Translations under genes and position numbers: made by a program
DNA from: a virus
DNA: 32,013 nt
Direction: 5' to 3' (one strand)
UHGV virus genome: UHGV-0351843
Shown here: positions 2,693 through 28,938 of the stretch, one piece after another
Layout of the letters: each line of letters begins with the position of its first letter
Position numbering within the stretch: the stretch's first letter is position 1
The notes under the pieces: model-generated
Databases searched by the model: none
What the model was told of the DNA's origin: nothing
Seen by the model: the letters and a program-made list of their open reading frames with translations, nothing else

Positions 2693-2763
2693 CTCGCAAT
2701 ATTCATACCGGATCACTTCCGGCAATTTATGAGTAAAAAGATTCGGTATCAAAAGAGGTGAGT

Positions 2764-3834
2764 ATGGCTAACGCCTGGCTCAGATTATGGCATGACATGC
2801 CAAATGACCCTAAGTGGCGAACAATTGCCAGGGTGTCAGGGCAGCCAATTGCAACAGTGATGGCAGTGTATATCCACCTCTTGGTGAGCGCGTCACGAAA
2901 TGTCACGCGAGGTCACATTGATGTCACGACAGAAGATTTGGCAAGTGCGCTCGACGTGACAGAAGAGGTAATTGATTCAATTTTGCAGACGATGCAGGGG
3001 CGGGTACTTGATGGTGATTTAATCACTGGATGGGAAAAACGCCAGGTGCTTAAAGAGGACAACGGCAATATTTCGCAAACCGCAAAATCTCCTGCAGAGC
3101 GCAAGAGGGCGCAGCGAGAGAGGGAAAGAAAGCGGGAACAAAATGGCGATTGTCACGGCGCGTCACGAAATGTCACGCACATGTCACGACGAGTCACGAC
3201 AGATAAAGATACAGATAAAGATACAGATCAAGAAGATCAAAACACTATGGTCCATGGCGTAAAAAACGCCACGAACCAGGCAGGGGATGTTCAGACCGTC
3301 AATCTTGGTCAGCCAGCAGGCACGACACCGGAAGCCGATTCAGCGTATGCGCTGAAAGCCGATTCGGGCGCTGTGCAGCAGGTGATGACCGCAAGGCCGG
3401 AGCAATCACACCAACTGCAGCAGCCCGAAGCCGATTCCGCCATTCAGCGGGAAGCCGATCGGGTAGTCCCGGAAAACACCGGGCAGTCTGTGGGACGAGT
3501 GGATTATCCGGATGTGTTCGAACAGGTCTGGCGGGAGTACCCGTTGCGTGCCGGAGCAAACCCGAAGAAATCCGCTTTCAGTGCCTGGAAGGCCAGATTA
3601 CGCGAGGGGGTGCCACCAGAGGCCATGCTGGATGGCGTGAGGCGTTACGCAAGATACTTGGCGGCTACCGGGAAAACGGGAACGGAATTTGTTCAGCGAG
3701 CGACGACGTTTTTTGGACCGGACCGGAATTTTGAGAACCCCTGGTTGCTCCCGGTAAGCGGCACGAACAACCAGCGTTGTGTGAATCATATTTCTGAACC
3801 GGATAACGAAATTCCGCCGGGCTTCAGGGGGTAA
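2764..3834 (+). CDS. replication initiator (phage replisome-organiser N-terminal domain with YdaU/DUF1376-like C-terminus)
   Basis: ORF 2758..3834 (GTG at 2758; ATG at 2764 with AAGAGGTGAG upstream). It occupies the O-gene position after the cro/cII-like genes and has an iteron array embedded in the coding sequence. The C-terminal segment resembles the YdaU family (recalled). Confidence 0.75.
   Translation: MANAWLRLWHDMPNDPKWRTIARVSGQPIATVMAVYIHLLVSASRNVTRGHIDVTTEDLASALDVTEEVIDSILQTMQGRVLDGDLITGWEKRQVLKEDNGNISQTAKSPAERKRAQRERERKREQNGDCHGASRNVTHMSRRVTTDKDTDKDTDQEDQNTMVHGVKNATNQAGDVQTVNLGQPAGTTPEADSAYALKADSGAVQQVMTARPEQSHQLQQPEADSAIQREADRVVPENTGQSVGRVDYPDVFEQVWREYPLRAGANPKKSAFSAWKARLREGVPPEAMLDGVRRYARYLAATGKTGTEFVQRATTFFGPDRNFENPWLLPVSGTNNQRCVNHISEPDNEIPPGFRG
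2889..2930. repeat. iteron cluster A (GTCACG-type repeats) inside the initiator gene
   Basis: gcgcgtcacgaaatgtcacgc followed by ggtcaca and tgtcacg; about four GTCAC(G/A) copies at roughly 10-bp spacing. Confidence 0.6.
3151..3240. repeat. iteron cluster B plus AT-rich tandem repeat; candidate origin of replication
   Basis: Five GTCACG copies at about 10-bp spacing (near 3152, 3162, 3172, 3183, 3193), including a perfect 21-bp direct repeat of cluster A (gcgcgtcacgaaatgtcacgc). They are followed immediately by the AT-rich tandem agataaagatacagataaagatacagatcaagaagatcaa. Confidence 0.6.
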
Positions 3835-3874: not shown

Positions 3875-4297
3875 GTGGCAAAAGTTTTTACACAAGAAGA
3901 GCGGGAAAAAATTAAAGGGCAGGTTGTTGAACTCGTACGCCAGAGTGGGCGCGAGACGTTAAGACAACTGGAAACTAAAACTGGGGCAACAAAATATCTG
4001 ATGAACGTTCTGGCCAGAGAGCTGGTTGCCAGTGGCGATGTATACAACTCTGGTTACGGGTTATTCCCGTCTGAACAGGCGCGTAAGGACTGGCAAAATG
4101 CCCGTAAAAAGCTCTCAAGGGCAAAGCTGAAGAAACCATCTGCGGTTGATCCGGACCTTATCTGGTCATTACCTGATGGAGAAATACGTCGTTACGACAG
4201 GCGTCATAATATGATTTGTACTGAGTGTCGTAAAAGCGAAGTTATGCAGCGCATATTGTCGTTTTATCAGGGGGATGTTCGGTATTTATTGAAGTGA
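3875..4297 (+). CDS. hypothetical protein (GTG start) in the position of the second replication gene
   Basis: 140-aa ORF with AGGAGG 5 nt upstream of GTG. No recognisable DnaC/P/DnaB signature was seen by eye. Confidence 0.5.
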   Translation: MAKVFTQEEREKIKGQVVELVRQSGRETLRQLETKTGATKYLMNVLARELVASGDVYNSGYGLFPSEQARKDWQNARKKLSRAKLKKPSAVDPDLIWSLPDGEIRRYDRRHNMICTECRKSEVMQRILSFYQGDVRYLLK

Positions 4298-4559
4298 CGA
4301 GATTAAAGTGCATTAGTTCAGATGCAAATTGACATTTTGTGGCACAGGGTAGAGCTAGCGTGGTTGTCCGCTTTGTGCCAACAGCGGACATTATGGAAGG
4401 TCAGAGTTAAAGATTAAAATGGGATGCTGTGTGTTTTCTCCAGGTTTTGCTCTATACCTTTCGGGATACTCCACCGACAGAATACGAAAATCAACATTAT
4501 CAACGGCTCGAAGTGTCTAGATTATCCATGGCAATTCATGGGAAATCCCATCCAACGGC

Positions 4560-5951
4560 TTATGCTTCATGTTGCTTTTTGAGATCGCTTCTAGCATAGC
4601 TCCACTCAATAATGTTGTCGGGTCGTTGCTGATCGAAAAGGATACGGGATTCAATACCATTACCTAAAAAGCTGGTATTCCCATCTACGTAAGAAGCTAT
4701 CCCTTGTGAACCAACACGAAGAATATTTTCTAATGGCTGCTTTGTTCTTGCTGCATCGCTAAGGAGATATAAACCCGGGTACGTTTTGTTAGCACGGTGA
4801 AAAAAAAGTTCATTGTCAAAACACATGACGATGATTATTTGTCCCGACATGAGATCGGAGAGCATTTCAGTTGGCAGATGCAAACTCATAAATGGTCGAG
4901 ACAAAGGGTCAAAGAATGAATCATTTATATTCACAACAGGGCTTTTTATACCGAGACTATCCATCCATCCATTGAAGGCAACAAAGCCCATTTCAGAATC
5001 ACGGTACATACCTAAGAACAAACATTCATCAATAGTATCAATTGCCCAATTTTTTCCTCCGCGAATAATCTCCCACATTTTAACTAAGCGGTGGGTATAA
5101 AATTCAGACGGATGATCTATCTCATTGATTTTAACTTTAGACTGATGAAAGTTGTCAAAGCCCTCGCCAGTATTAATCGCCTCCAGAACATTCATGCCAC
5201 GAATGATTTGCCTTTTTATGCGATTAAATTGCTTAACATCATTATCAGGCATATTGTTAATGAAGTTTTCTTCAAAGTGCGGACATTCTGAGATAACAGA
5301 AAATTCAGCAGCTTCATAAAGCTCATTATTCTTTTCACCTGTTTTAACTTCCACGAGCTGGAAGCCATCCAGTAGATTAAAGGTGACTAAATCTCCCACA
5401 TGAACAAATGTGCTCATGTCAGAGACAATCGCTACGGAGTGTTTGTCCTGGTTGATAAGATCGGCTGCGACCATAGAATCAATTATGTTATCTTCTGATA
5501 GATTGTCATTGCTTGCATTAATAGGTAAACGCCGCAAACTAGAGTGTTCTTCATCAAGAATGCTCCAAATTATTGAGTCAATACAACGGCGAAGAATAAG
5601 AATTTCAAATTTTTTTAAACTTATTTCATCAATACACTTTTCTTTATTTTCTTTATCCTTGTTTCGATGGTGCTCTTTTTTTTCAGTTTCCAATCTTTTT
5701 ATATCTCTCAGCCGAATAATAATCTCAAAAGATATGATTTTTTGTGAGTCTTTCCAATTTTTGAGACAGGTTTCATACTCTGCAAGAAAATCCTCATCAT
5801 TGGAAGGTAGTTCTTGAATTGGATTCCCTCCCCTTATCATTTTGGCAAGTGCATGCATTAAAGATACATAATGAGGTGATAAAATTGTCCAAAACTTCCT
5901 AAACGGTTTGTACTTTTCAAGAAAAGTTGACTCATCAGTATAATTCATCAT
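4560..5951 (-). CDS. hypothetical protein, candidate defence effector with a possible PD-(D/E)xK-like motif
   Basis: 463-aa minus-strand ORF (track 4560..5957 begins at TTG; ATG at 5949-5951 with GAGG upstream) in an AT-rich island. The central segment HVGDLVTFNLLDGFQLVEVKTGEK fits a D...(E)xK nuclease-type motif. It lies directly downstream of the AbiH-like gene on the same strand. Confidence 0.7.
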   Translation of the reverse strand: MMNYTDESTFLEKYKPFRKFWTILSPHYVSLMHALAKMIRGGNPIQELPSNDEDFLAEYETCLKNWKDSQKIISFEIIIRLRDIKRLETEKKEHHRNKDKENKEKCIDEISLKKFEILILRRCIDSIIWSILDEEHSSLRRLPINASNDNLSEDNIIDSMVAADLINQDKHSVAIVSDMSTFVHVGDLVTFNLLDGFQLVEVKTGEKNNELYEAAEFSVISECPHFEENFINNMPDNDVKQFNRIKRQIIRGMNVLEAINTGEGFDNFHQSKVKINEIDHPSEFYTHRLVKMWEIIRGGKNWAIDTIDECLFLGMYRDSEMGFVAFNGWMDSLGIKSPVVNINDSFFDPLSRPFMSLHLPTEMLSDLMSGQIIIVMCFDNELFFHRANKTYPGLYLLSDAARTKQPLENILRVGSQGIASYVDGNTSFLGNGIESRILFDQQRPDNIIEWSYARSDLKKQHEA

Positions 5952-6040
5952 AACCAAACCTCATTCCTCTTATCTATTTTCCTCAAGGTATAAAATACCA
6001 GCCTTTTTTACATAATTATAGTTATAATATGAAGTCTCAT

Positions 6041-6910
6041 TCAGATATCTTCATACTGTACGTAAGAAATATTTGAGCCTCTGATACCATAATCTTCTAA
6101 ACTGCCTGATTTTTTCTCACCTCTATATAAAGCAACTATCCATCGAGCATTTTCTTGGATGCTTTTATTTATTTCAGTAAAGTATTCACCGTCAACTTCG
6201 GCGAGCGAGTGGCCTAAAACGATGACCTCGTCCACATTTTTAAGCGATGAGAAAAAAACGTTTTCTTCTTTAATTATGTCTTCGCTGGGCTTGAATGTAT
6301 TACCGAAGTATTCGTTTATTCTGTCGTATGCCTCTGCTATTCTTGTATCTTGATCCGGTCCTATATATGGATTTAGTGACTTTTCCACCCTAAAACTATG
6401 ACCAAGTATGAGATCGTCATCGTAACTACAATTGCCGTGAATATGTATGATTTGCTCGTCTGGAACGGCATAGATCTGCTGCAAGGTATTTGTATAATTA
6501 AATGAAAAATAGATGCTTTCTCTTGGTATGGGCGGGATGTATTGCTTAGGATTGTAAGCATCGGCTATGTTAATCCCTTTAACCCAATCAGCGAATTGCT
6601 CCTTCAAACGAGCTGACAGCATTTGTGTGATTTTATTTACTTCATATTGGTAATCGTGATGATAAGCATCGCTCCAATCATCGGTATTGTATGAAGCCAA
6701 AAATATCTCACTGTTTTGAAGGATAAGCTCATAATCAATTTCACCTAAAGCATTTTCTAACTCATTCCACTCGTCCCCAGCAGGAATGTATTCTTCTATC
6801 GCGTCATATAGATCTTGGTCATTTTTTTCTACATACGACTTAAAGTGCTTGTATCCTGTTGGTAAGCCATGACGCATGTCAAATCCATTTCCTATTATGT
6901 AAAGCCTCAT
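6041..6910 (-). CDS. AbiH-like abortive-infection family protein
   Basis: ORF 6041..6961; the likely start is Met18 at 6908-6910 with AAGGGA upstream. The N-terminus MRLYIIGNGFDMRHGLPTGYKHF matches my recollection of the conserved N-terminal motif of the AbiH family; this needs HMM confirmation. AT-rich codon usage unlike the flanking phage genes. Confidence 0.65.
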   Translation of the reverse strand: MRLYIIGNGFDMRHGLPTGYKHFKSYVEKNDQDLYDAIEEYIPAGDEWNELENALGEIDYELILQNSEIFLASYNTDDWSDAYHHDYQYEVNKITQMLSARLKEQFADWVKGINIADAYNPKQYIPPIPRESIYFSFNYTNTLQQIYAVPDEQIIHIHGNCSYDDDLILGHSFRVEKSLNPYIGPDQDTRIAEAYDRINEYFGNTFKPSEDIIKEENVFFSSLKNVDEVIVLGHSLAEVDGEYFTEINKSIQENARWIVALYRGEKKSGSLEDYGIRGSNISYVQYEDI

Positions 6911-7224
6911 TGTTTTTCCCTTAGTCGAATTGTATAAAAATACTAACATGGCCTGCTCCACGTTGACTACTATCCCCTCCTTTGAGTAATGCCTTCATCA
7001 GATGTAACAACATTTGCGAGCTTCCACAGTTCGCTCAAAGCGGACTAGAAGGTTAGCTTGCGTCGGACTTGGCGTATTTAAAGAAGTGCTGGTGGAGACT
7101 GGTTGTTGTGTTCCATTTCTACAGAACAAAATCACAGAAACTATACCCAATAGTTATATTGAATCAATGATGAGACAGCCTCATATTTATCAGGACTGGT
7201 GTACGTCCAATACAGGAGGTTGTC

Positions 7225-7314: not shown

Positions 7315-7525
7315 TTTTATATTGGCGAGGTGACGTGAGTTAAGTAGAATTGCTGCGGGTGCTTGAGGCTATCTGCCTCAGGCATGAACACCAAAGGCAG
7401 ATAGAGAAAAGCCCCAGTTAACATTACGCGTCCTGCAAGACGCTTAACATTAATCTGAGGCCAATTTCATGCTAGACACATGTAGGTTAGCCTCTTACGT
7501 GCCGAAAGGCAAGGAGAAGCAGGCT

Positions 7526-7681
7526 ATGAAGCAGCAAAAGGCGATGTTAATCGCCCTGATCGTCATCTGTTTAACCGTCATAGTGACGGCACTGGTAACG
7601 AGGAAAGACCTCTGCGAGGTACGAATCCGAACCGGCCAGACGGAGGTCGCTGTCTTCACAGCTTACGAACCTGAGGAGTAA
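7526..7681 (+). CDS. hok: Hok/Gef-family type I toxin
   Basis: 51-aa product MKQQKAMLIALIVICLTVIVTALVTRKDLCEVRIRTGQTEVAVFTAYEPEE with AAGGAG upstream. It has the Hok family signature (N-terminal TM helix plus the CEVR motif) and matches my recollection of HokD/RelF-type chromosomal Hok proteins. An in-frame upstream ATG at 7469 could give a Mok-like extension. Confidence 0.85.
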   Translation: MKQQKAMLIALIVICLTVIVTALVTRKDLCEVRIRTGQTEVAVFTAYEPEE

Positions 7682-28099: not shown

Positions 28100-28522
28100 A
28101 TGTTCCTGAAAACCGAATCATTTGAACATAACGGTGTGACCGTCACGCTTTCTGAACTGTCAGCCCTGCAGCGTATTGAGCATCTCGCCCTGATGAAACG
28201 GCAGGCAGAACAGGCGGAGTCAGACAGCAACCGGAAGTTTACTGTGGAAGACGCCATCAGAACCGGCGCGTTTCTGGTGGCGATGTCCCTGTGGCATAAC
28301 CATCCGAAGAAGACAAAGCTGCCTTCCATGAATGAAGCCGTTAAACAGATTGAGCAGGAAGTGCTTACCACCTGGCCCACGGAGGCAATTTCTCATGCTG
28401 AAAACGTGGTGTACCGGCTGTCCGGTATGTATGAGTTTGTGGTGAATGATGCTCCTGAACAGACAGAGGACGCCGGGCCTGCAGAGCCTGTTTCTGCGGG
28501 AAAGTGTTCGATGGTGAGCTGA
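28100..28522 (+). CDS. G: tail assembly chaperone G
   Basis: 140 aa; lambda gpG-like. Confidence 0.9.
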   Translation: MFLKTESFEHNGVTVTLSELSALQRIEHLALMKRQAEQAESDSNRKFTVEDAIRTGAFLVAMSLWHNHPKKTKLPSMNEAVKQIEQEVLTTWPTEAISHAENVVYRLSGMYEFVVNDAPEQTEDAGPAEPVSAGKCSMVS

Positions 28523-28938
28523 GTTTTGCCCTGAAACTGGCGCGAGAGATGGGGCGACCCGACTGGCGTGCCATGCTTGCCGGGATGTCATCCACGGAGT
28601 ATGCCGACTGGCACCGCTTTTACAGTACCCATTATTTTCATGATGTTCTGCTGGATATGCACTTTTCCGGGCTGACGTACACCGTGCTCAGCCTGTTTTT
28701 CAGCGATCCGGATATGCATCCGCTGGATTTCAGTCTGCTGAACCGGCGTGAGGCTGACGAAGAGCCTGAAGATGATGTGCTGATGCAGAAAGCGGCAGGG
28801 CTTGCCGGAGGCGTCCGCTTTGGCCCGGACGGGAATGAAGTTATCCCCGCTTCCCCGGATGTGGCGGACATGACGGAGGATGACGTAATGCTGATGACAG
28901 TATCAGAAGGGATCGCAGGAGGAGTCCGGTATGGCTGA
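28100..28938 (+). CDS. T: tail assembly chaperone G-T fusion produced by programmed -1 ribosomal frameshift
   Basis: Slippery heptamer G GGA AAG at 28498-28504 in the G frame. The -1 frame continues as ...GKVFDGELSFALKLAREMG... to the stop at 28938, which overlaps the H start. Confidence 0.85.

Follow-up and report, generated by a model that had tools for sequence, protein, structure and literature searches.

The UHGV virus genome UHGV-0351843, analyzed here as one stretch of 32,013 nucleotides (the window), carries two adjacent genes, one for DS-37 and one for a homologue of AbiH, a protein of Lactococcus lactis reportedly described by Prevots et al. in 1996. Like the L. lactis protein, the AbiH of the window has a full-length Pfam match, the GNGFD motif, a similar size and a single domain, and it is found on mobile elements; unlike it, it is Gram-negative and prophage-borne, and is known here from sequence alone. 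DS-37 (SC24; DeWeirdt et al., PMC13092281) is a single-gene system annotated as PDDEXK/NERD-like, and the window encodes the same protein on the same fragment, with no sequence difference. Its AbiH neighbor, its prophage slot, the size of its family and its catalytic residues are not discussed in that paper. The same gene pair is also in print as the AbiH-DS-37 'synton' (PMC13639185). Compared with that description, we resolve two separable modules that are joined 27 bp past the AbiH stop codon, with AbiH as the partner in the closest DS-37 clade only, and this module map tempers the synergy that has been suggested for the pair (PMC13639185).

Two further groups invite comparison. With NERD and other PD-(D/E)xK nucleases (PF08378 and its clan), DS-37 shares a D...D...ExK arrangement, a helix-strand-strand-strand-helix order and a 14-residue D-to-E spacing. 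Unlike members of these families, it has no significant profile or structural match, and its core is set between a ~130-residue helical hairpin and a ~200-residue alpha/beta domain. The genomic setting recalls the P2/P4 prophage hotspots (Rousset et al. 2022, PMC9122126; Vassallo et al. 2022) in that a fixed slot holds interchangeable defense cargo, and P2-like prophages also house diverged DS-37 homologues. In contrast to those hotspots, the slot described here belongs to Qin/Rac-like lambdoid prophages and runs from a conserved hairpin after a DUF977 gene to sok/hokD.

We read the locus as a compact cassette of two independently functional single-gene anti-phage systems lodged in a prophage cargo slot (probability about 0.8). 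In this reading AbiH would be a Sir2-like abortive-infection protein that acts by NAD+ depletion or ADP-ribosylation after sensing a phage. DS-37, expressed from a promoter of its own in the 89-bp spacer between the genes, would be a nuclease with a PD-(D/E)xK/NERD-like metal site (D178, D187, E201 and K203, plus R244 and Q248). The genes co-travel as a 2.7-kb unit in E. coli and Klebsiella, neither depending on the other, and their action would be additive rather than cooperative. The catalytic-residue predictions, the module map and the hairpin-bounded hotspot are what we expect to be of lasting value.

Two known genes, one of them sufficient for defense

As the preliminary description of this DNA had it, two tandem open reading frames (ORFs) lie on the minus strand, at 6041-6910 (289 aa) and 4560-5951 (463 aa). 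The intergenic gap measures 89 bp (6040-5952). The features on which their identification depends are the following.

4560-5951, minus strand: DS-37 gene (463 aa, WP_000982358.1, the RefSeq accession on a 100%-identical record; contains HVGDLVTFNLLDGFQLVEVKTGEK)
4458-6040, minus strand: validated DS-37 clone (SC24), both primer matches exact
5952-6040, minus strand: spacer with putative DS-37 promoter and ribosome-binding site, entered by the SC24 forward primer (6040-6002)
6041-6910, minus strand: abiH (289 aa, begins MRLYIIGNGFDMRHGLPTGY), matched by Pfam PF14253, PADLOC and phrog_19951
6878-6892, minus strand: codons of the invariant AbiH motif G7-N8-G9-F10-D11 (alignment A6)

The 463-aa protein has no match in Pfam, PADLOC 2023, PHROGs or NCBIfam; PADLOC-DB 2.0 is older than DS-37. 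Its identity is nevertheless established, since all 399 residues printed in Table S8 of PMC13092281 are identical to the protein of the window, which has the same length, and WP_000982358.1 is given in Table S6 as transcription unit SC24, or DS-37, with defense TRUE (DefensePredictor, PMC13092281). It is listed there as a lone 'hypothetical protein' and a validated single-gene system (DeWeirdt et al., Science 2026, PMC13092281). With DS-37 published and its co-localization with AbiH in print as well (PMC13639185), the earlier proposal of an undescribed defense system is out of date: both genes and their association are already known, and there is no new two-gene system here.

DS-37 suffices for defense. 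Under the DefensePredictor cloning rule, an insert includes 200 bp of upstream sequence, or less where the next gene is nearer, and is placed in the pSC101 vector pCV1, which lacks an upstream promoter (PMC13092281). Placed on the window, the SC24 primers (Table S11, PMC13092281) align without a mismatch, at 6002-6040(-) and 4458-4478(+), and the cloned fragment is therefore made up of the 89-bp spacer, the DS-37 gene and a further 102 bp beyond it, with neither AbiH nor the hairpin at the cassette edge described below. In E. coli MG1655, pCV1-SC24 gave a -log10 efficiency of plating (EOP) of 4.32 on Bas69, the N4-like Enquatrovirus AlfredRasser, and of 1.94 on the siphovirus SECphi27, the second phage restricted by DS-37 (PMC13092281). 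The phenotype thus does not require both genes, the published clone working without AbiH. Because a clone that starts at 6040 protects on a promoter-less vector, the spacer appears to carry expression signals. A ribosome-binding site, GAGG, lies at 5963-5960, 8 nt ahead of the DS-37 ATG, and the promoter would likewise be located within these 89 bp.

The 289-aa protein had been assigned to AbiH on its N-terminal motif, and profile searches bear this out. Pfam AbiH (PF14253) aligns residues 3-259 to positions 1-258 of a 260-position model (E=6.6e-69; 233.3 bits against a cut-off of 30.9), and the PADLOC AbiH model (1.3e-27) and phrog_19951 (5.5e-181) match as well. PF14253 was found in every one of 1572 homologues. 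In an alignment of 26 AbiH proteins reaching down to 42% identity (A6), the motif G7-N8-G9-F10-D11 is invariant, as are H14, N138, H158, G159, H171, D188 and H234. The family has been reported to be Sir2-like, by prediction (PMC13064643); an abortive-infection phenotype as a single gene is on record for the L. lactis prototype only (cited in PMC13064643).

RefSeq starts the AbiH gene at an ATG at 6949 (302 aa, WP_001297700.1). A length of 289 aa is common among homologues and the Pfam match starts at residue 3, which makes the start at 6910 at least as good. A hairpin resembling a terminator, with a T-run behind it (AACGTGGAGCAGGCCATGTT AGTATTTTTA, 6945-6964(-); -9.1 kcal/mol, z=-2.1), occupies the leader 35-54 nt ahead of the ATG at 6910, within the longer RefSeq frame. 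This hairpin favors the start at 6910, and it could serve to insulate AbiH transcription or to attenuate it.

AbiH and DS-37 are separable

The full pair was found in ~65 of 5426 complete E. coli genomes; DS-37 is present in 67 of them and full-length AbiH in 65, with AbiH remnants in ~50 more. The E. coli cassette is a single lineage (at least 97% identity among complete genomes), and these genomes are therefore not independent evidence of coupling. Outside this lineage the genes come apart. In Morganellaceae (loci L023-L026), a 91%-identical AbiH stands solo in defense islands that lack DS-37, and the DNA homology stops 27 bp past its stop codon, which delimits a module.

6014-7046, minus strand: AbiH-only module (gene with 136 bp upstream and 27 bp downstream), ~90% identical in L023-L026

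Given this junction, DS-37 brings its own 62-bp leader. Among the neighborhoods examined, only DS-37 proteins of at least 85% identity have AbiH upstream, at a distance that is 83-89 bp in every case, and co-occurrence of the two across diverged lineages was accordingly not found. DS-37 homologues at 38-55% identity have other neighbors or none. A PD-T4-5-like Abi_2 gene lies 16-18 bp upstream of the homologue in Pantoea and Erwinia, and a PDC-S19-like DUF3644/REase gene 17 bp upstream in Dickeya. Homologues without a partner occur next to an integrase and, in P2-like prophages, behind gpD or between baseplate genes. In Aeromonas media (L012, 1200-7798), a homologue sits between a Gabija operon and an Argonaute-associated nuclease (GajA, 2e-242; GajB, 7e-191; Aga_Nuclease, 1e-55), a typical chromosomal defense island.

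Natural knockouts complete this picture. IS1 interrupts DS-37 in some variants with AbiH intact and AbiH in others with DS-37 intact, and IS3-bounded deletions also occur. Solo AbiH, the solo DS-37 clone and these insertions together establish separability, both in natural genomes and in laboratory constructs, and the 'two-gene system' of the preliminary description is not supported. The conservation of the pair across genomes, which it proposed to check, holds in E. coli and Klebsiella and fails for the diverged DS-37 homologues. The module map shows the link between AbiH and DS-37 to be a physical junction of recent date rather than an ancient functional coupling.

These data have to be weighed against the view that AbiH and DS-37 form a cooperative system, in which DS-37 would act as a portable partner, such as a common sensor, amplifier or back-up layer, for whichever Abi effector stands upstream: the Sir2-like AbiH here, the HEPN PD-T4-5-like protein in Pantoea and Erwinia, or the DUF3644/REase PDC-S19-like protein in Dickeya. 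In that case the breadth or strength of defense would be greater for the pair than for each gene by itself. A redundancy-aware synteny analysis placed AbiH beside 240 of 341 DS-37 instances (71%), although DS-37 was present with only 12% of AbiH instances (Microlife 2026, PMC13639185). The pair moves as a single unit with identical ends in three different backbones, which favors cooperation; AbiH, like PD-T4-5, is nonetheless described as a single-gene system, and the 91%-identical AbiH exists without DS-37. That DS-37 homologues in other genera follow other Abi genes at 16-18 bp on the same strand, and that the upstream genes all have typical effector domains, is the pattern expected of a conserved sensor that swaps effectors, but many DS-37 homologues are partnerless. 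Against cooperation also stand the ~10^4-fold protection by DS-37 alone, the 89-bp spacer with a putative promoter of its own between the genes, and the persistence of IS knockouts of either gene. We consider a cooperative system unlikely and retain the reading of two independent systems in one cassette.

Several points nonetheless weigh against independence or leave parts of the proposed mechanism exposed. In other genera, the short distance of 16-18 bp between a DS-37 homologue and the unrelated Abi-type gene ahead of it is a hint of co-transcription and perhaps of a link in function. The authors of the synton analysis suggested synergy, or an accessory role for DS-37 (PMC13639185), and some synergy between AbiH and DS-37 is possible. 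We found no defense experiment on this E. coli AbiH orthologue in the literature. A search of PDB sequences with the AbiH profile returned chance matches only, with no sirtuin, so that PMC13064643 is the sole source of the Sir2 link, and the primer table of PMC13092281 lists no catalytic mutants of DS-37.

It is similarly improbable, in our view, that AbiH and DS-37 form a composite with emergent breadth, as one of a set of cassettes swapped into the lambdoid hotspot by recombination at a conserved hairpin marking both cassette edges. A toxin-antitoxin-like pair in which one protein restrains the other, in the manner of AbiE among the two-gene Abi systems, would fit two same-strand genes in a slot where related prophages carry relBE and hok/sok, and Abi systems are often of that type, but we reject it on the natural knockouts, because IS1 insertions in both directions exclude such a dependency, and MG1655 tolerates plasmid-borne DS-37 by itself, AbiH occurs solo in Morganellaceae, and the locus shows no small antitoxin-like ORF, no gene overlap and no DNA-binding domain.

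Some of the loci collected for these comparisons have features of their own. The annotated 439-aa start of the A. media homologue is probably too short, as an in-frame upstream start at 4863 gives 485 aa. In Morganella morganii (L015, 2856-4903), overlapping genes for 367-aa and 315-aa proteins lie 19-97 bp upstream of a DS-37 homologue, depending on the start codon chosen; neither matched Pfam or PADLOC, and they may be an uncharacterized defense pair. A scan of genome contigs contributed only one usable locus. Tiny contigs in the unrelated assemblies of Streptomyces plumbiresistens (L003, 583 bp) and Vogesella urethralis (L004, 245 bp, coverage 0.85) carry DS-37 fragments 86-90% identical to the E. 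coli protein, and contamination with enterobacterial DNA is the most likely explanation.

Conserved residues and predicted activity of DS-37

An exhaustive HMMER search returned 679 representatives of relatives clustered at 50% identity (E<=0.001), 500 of them at E<=1e-10. Most are ~450 aa long and share the same architecture, which makes the family far larger than its defense annotation implies. We aligned 74 homologues reaching down to ~20% identity (A3; mean column identity 28%). Only eight positions are invariant in all 74, namely D178, D187, E201, K203, G205, R244, Q248 and P444, and these are direct targets for mutagenesis.

5343-5420, minus strand: codons D178-K203 of the putative PD-(D/E)xK-like core (D178, G186-D187, E201-x-K203; alignment A3)
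5208-5222, minus strand: codons R244-Q248, in the long helix after the core, both residues invariant (74/74)

The AlphaFold model of DS-37 (pLDDT 82, pTM 0.83) has three parts: a long N-terminal helical hairpin (~residues 52-132), the core, and a C-terminal alpha/beta domain. The core consists of a helix (153-166), three strands (172-176, 188-192 and 196-200) and a further helix (206-221). D187 lies ahead of strand 2 and E201/K203 after strand 3; a fourth strand was not identified in this model, in which the core has a pLDDT of 56-87. The core is predicted to pack against the N-terminal hairpin and to precede a C-terminal domain specific to the family, and one or other of these flanking parts probably senses infection or keeps the enzyme inactive.

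From the conserved residues and the model, we think that DS-37 probably works as a metal-dependent nuclease. The preliminary description had guessed at a D...ExK nuclease from the sequence of the protein's center; the residues proved invariant across the alignment, while profile and fold searches brought no confirmation. Foldseek with the full model against PDB gave nothing at E<=0.001, and shallow and deep DS-37 profiles against PDB sequences gave chance matches only. The 'PDDEXK' label applied by the DS-37 authors comes from an HHpred match to NERD (PF08378) with a probability of just 0.47 (PMC13092281), and the columns 'EXK position 210-212 / D position 199' of their Table S8 do not map onto the E201-K203/D187 numbering used here.

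That probability and the moderate confidence of the core, whose pLDDT falls to 30-56 in a domain-only model, would also suit a protein that is not a nuclease, with its invariant residues serving nucleotide- or metal-binding signaling, or a new activity on a new fold. Yet D...G-D-(13 residues)-E-x-K-x-G on helix-strand-strand-strand-helix is the canonical PD-(D/E)xK/NERD layout, present in 74/74, and a 485-aa clade carries an additional Lys/Arg-rich tail that suits nucleic acid binding. We regard a non-nuclease as a serious but less likely option. We accordingly describe the predicted site of DS-37 as resembling PD-(D/E)xK, for which its 14-residue D-to-E spacing is typical, and do not file the protein under a named nuclease family.

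Four distant relatives of 669-690 aa (P0281, P0284, P0285 and P0302) have an extra ~250 aa at the N terminus. A search of these proteins for a fused partner turned up no Pfam domain; the extension may be a fused sensor or partner domain.

Cassette boundaries and variable cargo in Qin-like prophages

Comparison with other genomes sets the boundaries of the cassette, which with their surroundings are listed here.

4364-7046, minus strand: whole AbiH+DS-37 cassette, the moving unit (2.7 kb; blastn)
4365-4390, strand not assigned: hairpin TGTCCGCT-N10-AGCGGACA, left cassette edge (alignment A4)
7023-7058, strand not assigned: right-edge arm, an inverted copy of the left hairpin region (inverted-repeat search)
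2758-3834, plus strand: replisome organizer gene, left flank of the island
3875-4297, plus strand: DUF977 gene, left flank of the island
7357-7531, plus strand: sok antitoxin RNA (Rfam RF01794, 119.9 bits, E=7e-28)
7469-7681, plus strand: hokD reading frame, its start overlapped by sok

The genes on the right flank (hokD, a DUF968 gene, RusA and antiterminator Q) are on the plus strand, as are those on the left, and the island is therefore antisense, between replication and nin-like modules. Its GC content is 0.31-0.40 over ~4600-7000 compared with 0.48-0.58 in the flanks. Many genomes, E. coli MDR_56 among them, have an annotated stretch 100% identical to this one, set in a Qin/Rac-like lambdoid prophage. 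In this prophage, the left arm runs integrase, exonuclease, dicB, repressors, YdaT, replisome organizer and DUF977 up to the island, and the right arm continues with hokD, DUF968, RusA, antiterminator Q and lysis genes. The AT-rich block, its antisense placement among ordinary phage genes and its interpretation as a horizontally acquired defense moron had all been proposed beforehand and agree with these observations. The extent given at that time, 4298-7010, needs correction: by homology, the mobile unit spans ~4364-7046.

The cassette recurs with the same ends, at 88-95% identity, at two sites in Klebsiella, a lambdoid prophage (L019) and a umuDC-linked element (L027). At the left edge, homology to prophages that lack the cassette (L016, L017) extends from the DUF977 gene to 4388-4392, up to the 3' arm of the hairpin, while homology to the Klebsiella cassettes begins at 4364-4365 and continues from the 5' arm onward. 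The hairpin at 4365-4390 is thus the exact crossover between cassette and backbone, an observation that is new here. The inverted repeat that forms it, already noticed in the preliminary description, is exact, with TGTCCGCT at 4365-4372 and AGCGGACA at 4383-4390. Folding energies are -21.5 kcal/mol for the plus strand (z=-2.9) and -13.2 kcal/mol for the DS-37 strand (z=-1.5).

The repeat had been taken for an expression signal of the island itself. We reject it as an intrinsic terminator of DS-37: it lacks a U-tract and went unflagged in a terminator scan, the functional clone does not include it, and prophages whose backbone lacks the island have it too. Of the autonomous expression once proposed, the part that survives is the spacer, which appears to carry the signals.

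At the right edge, the 10-mer GTCCGCTTTG at 7036-7045(-) is an exact match shared, in inverted orientation, by both homology breakpoints, and in all four foreign contexts homology begins at the right-edge arm. The longest inverted repeat in the region (arms 4353-4388/7023-7058, 36 nt, 75% complementary) brackets the cassette, and may mark a recombination site for cassette exchange. The window has 3 copies of GTCCGCTTTG, where 0.05 would be expected. We judged the third copy, at 28813-28822, coincidental and not an edge signal, as it falls within an ORF of high GC content (28504-28938) among the tail genes. A second hairpin of the left-edge type (GTCCGC-N12-GCGGAC) is found in the Klebsiella prophage L019, ~25 bp beyond the edge on the AbiH side.

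The cargo between these flanks is variable. In the window, the slot is flanked by 4298-4392 and 7357-7681 and reaches from the hairpin after the DUF977 gene to sok/hokD. In the comparison loci (L016, L017 and L018), it holds a PD-T7-1 homologue (E=7e-157) with a 314-aa protein of no known identity in NZ_CP119120, flxA, ydfV and relBE in K-12 Qin, and IS elements in NZ_CP126348. Published primers lead to the same place (PMC13092281): the DS-33 forward primer corresponds to 4298-4324, and the DS-3 primers to the hairpin (4368-4389, 2 mismatches) and to 7504-7525 in the sok/hokD region. Together with DS-37, at least three DefensePredictor systems therefore come from one slot, which is not mentioned in that paper. 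We found no description of the slot in the literature, of which Brenes & Laub 2025 (E. coli prophage defenses) was not covered. The slot is a practical place for mining further defense genes. An intact hok/sok type I toxin-antitoxin locus directly adjoins the cassette.

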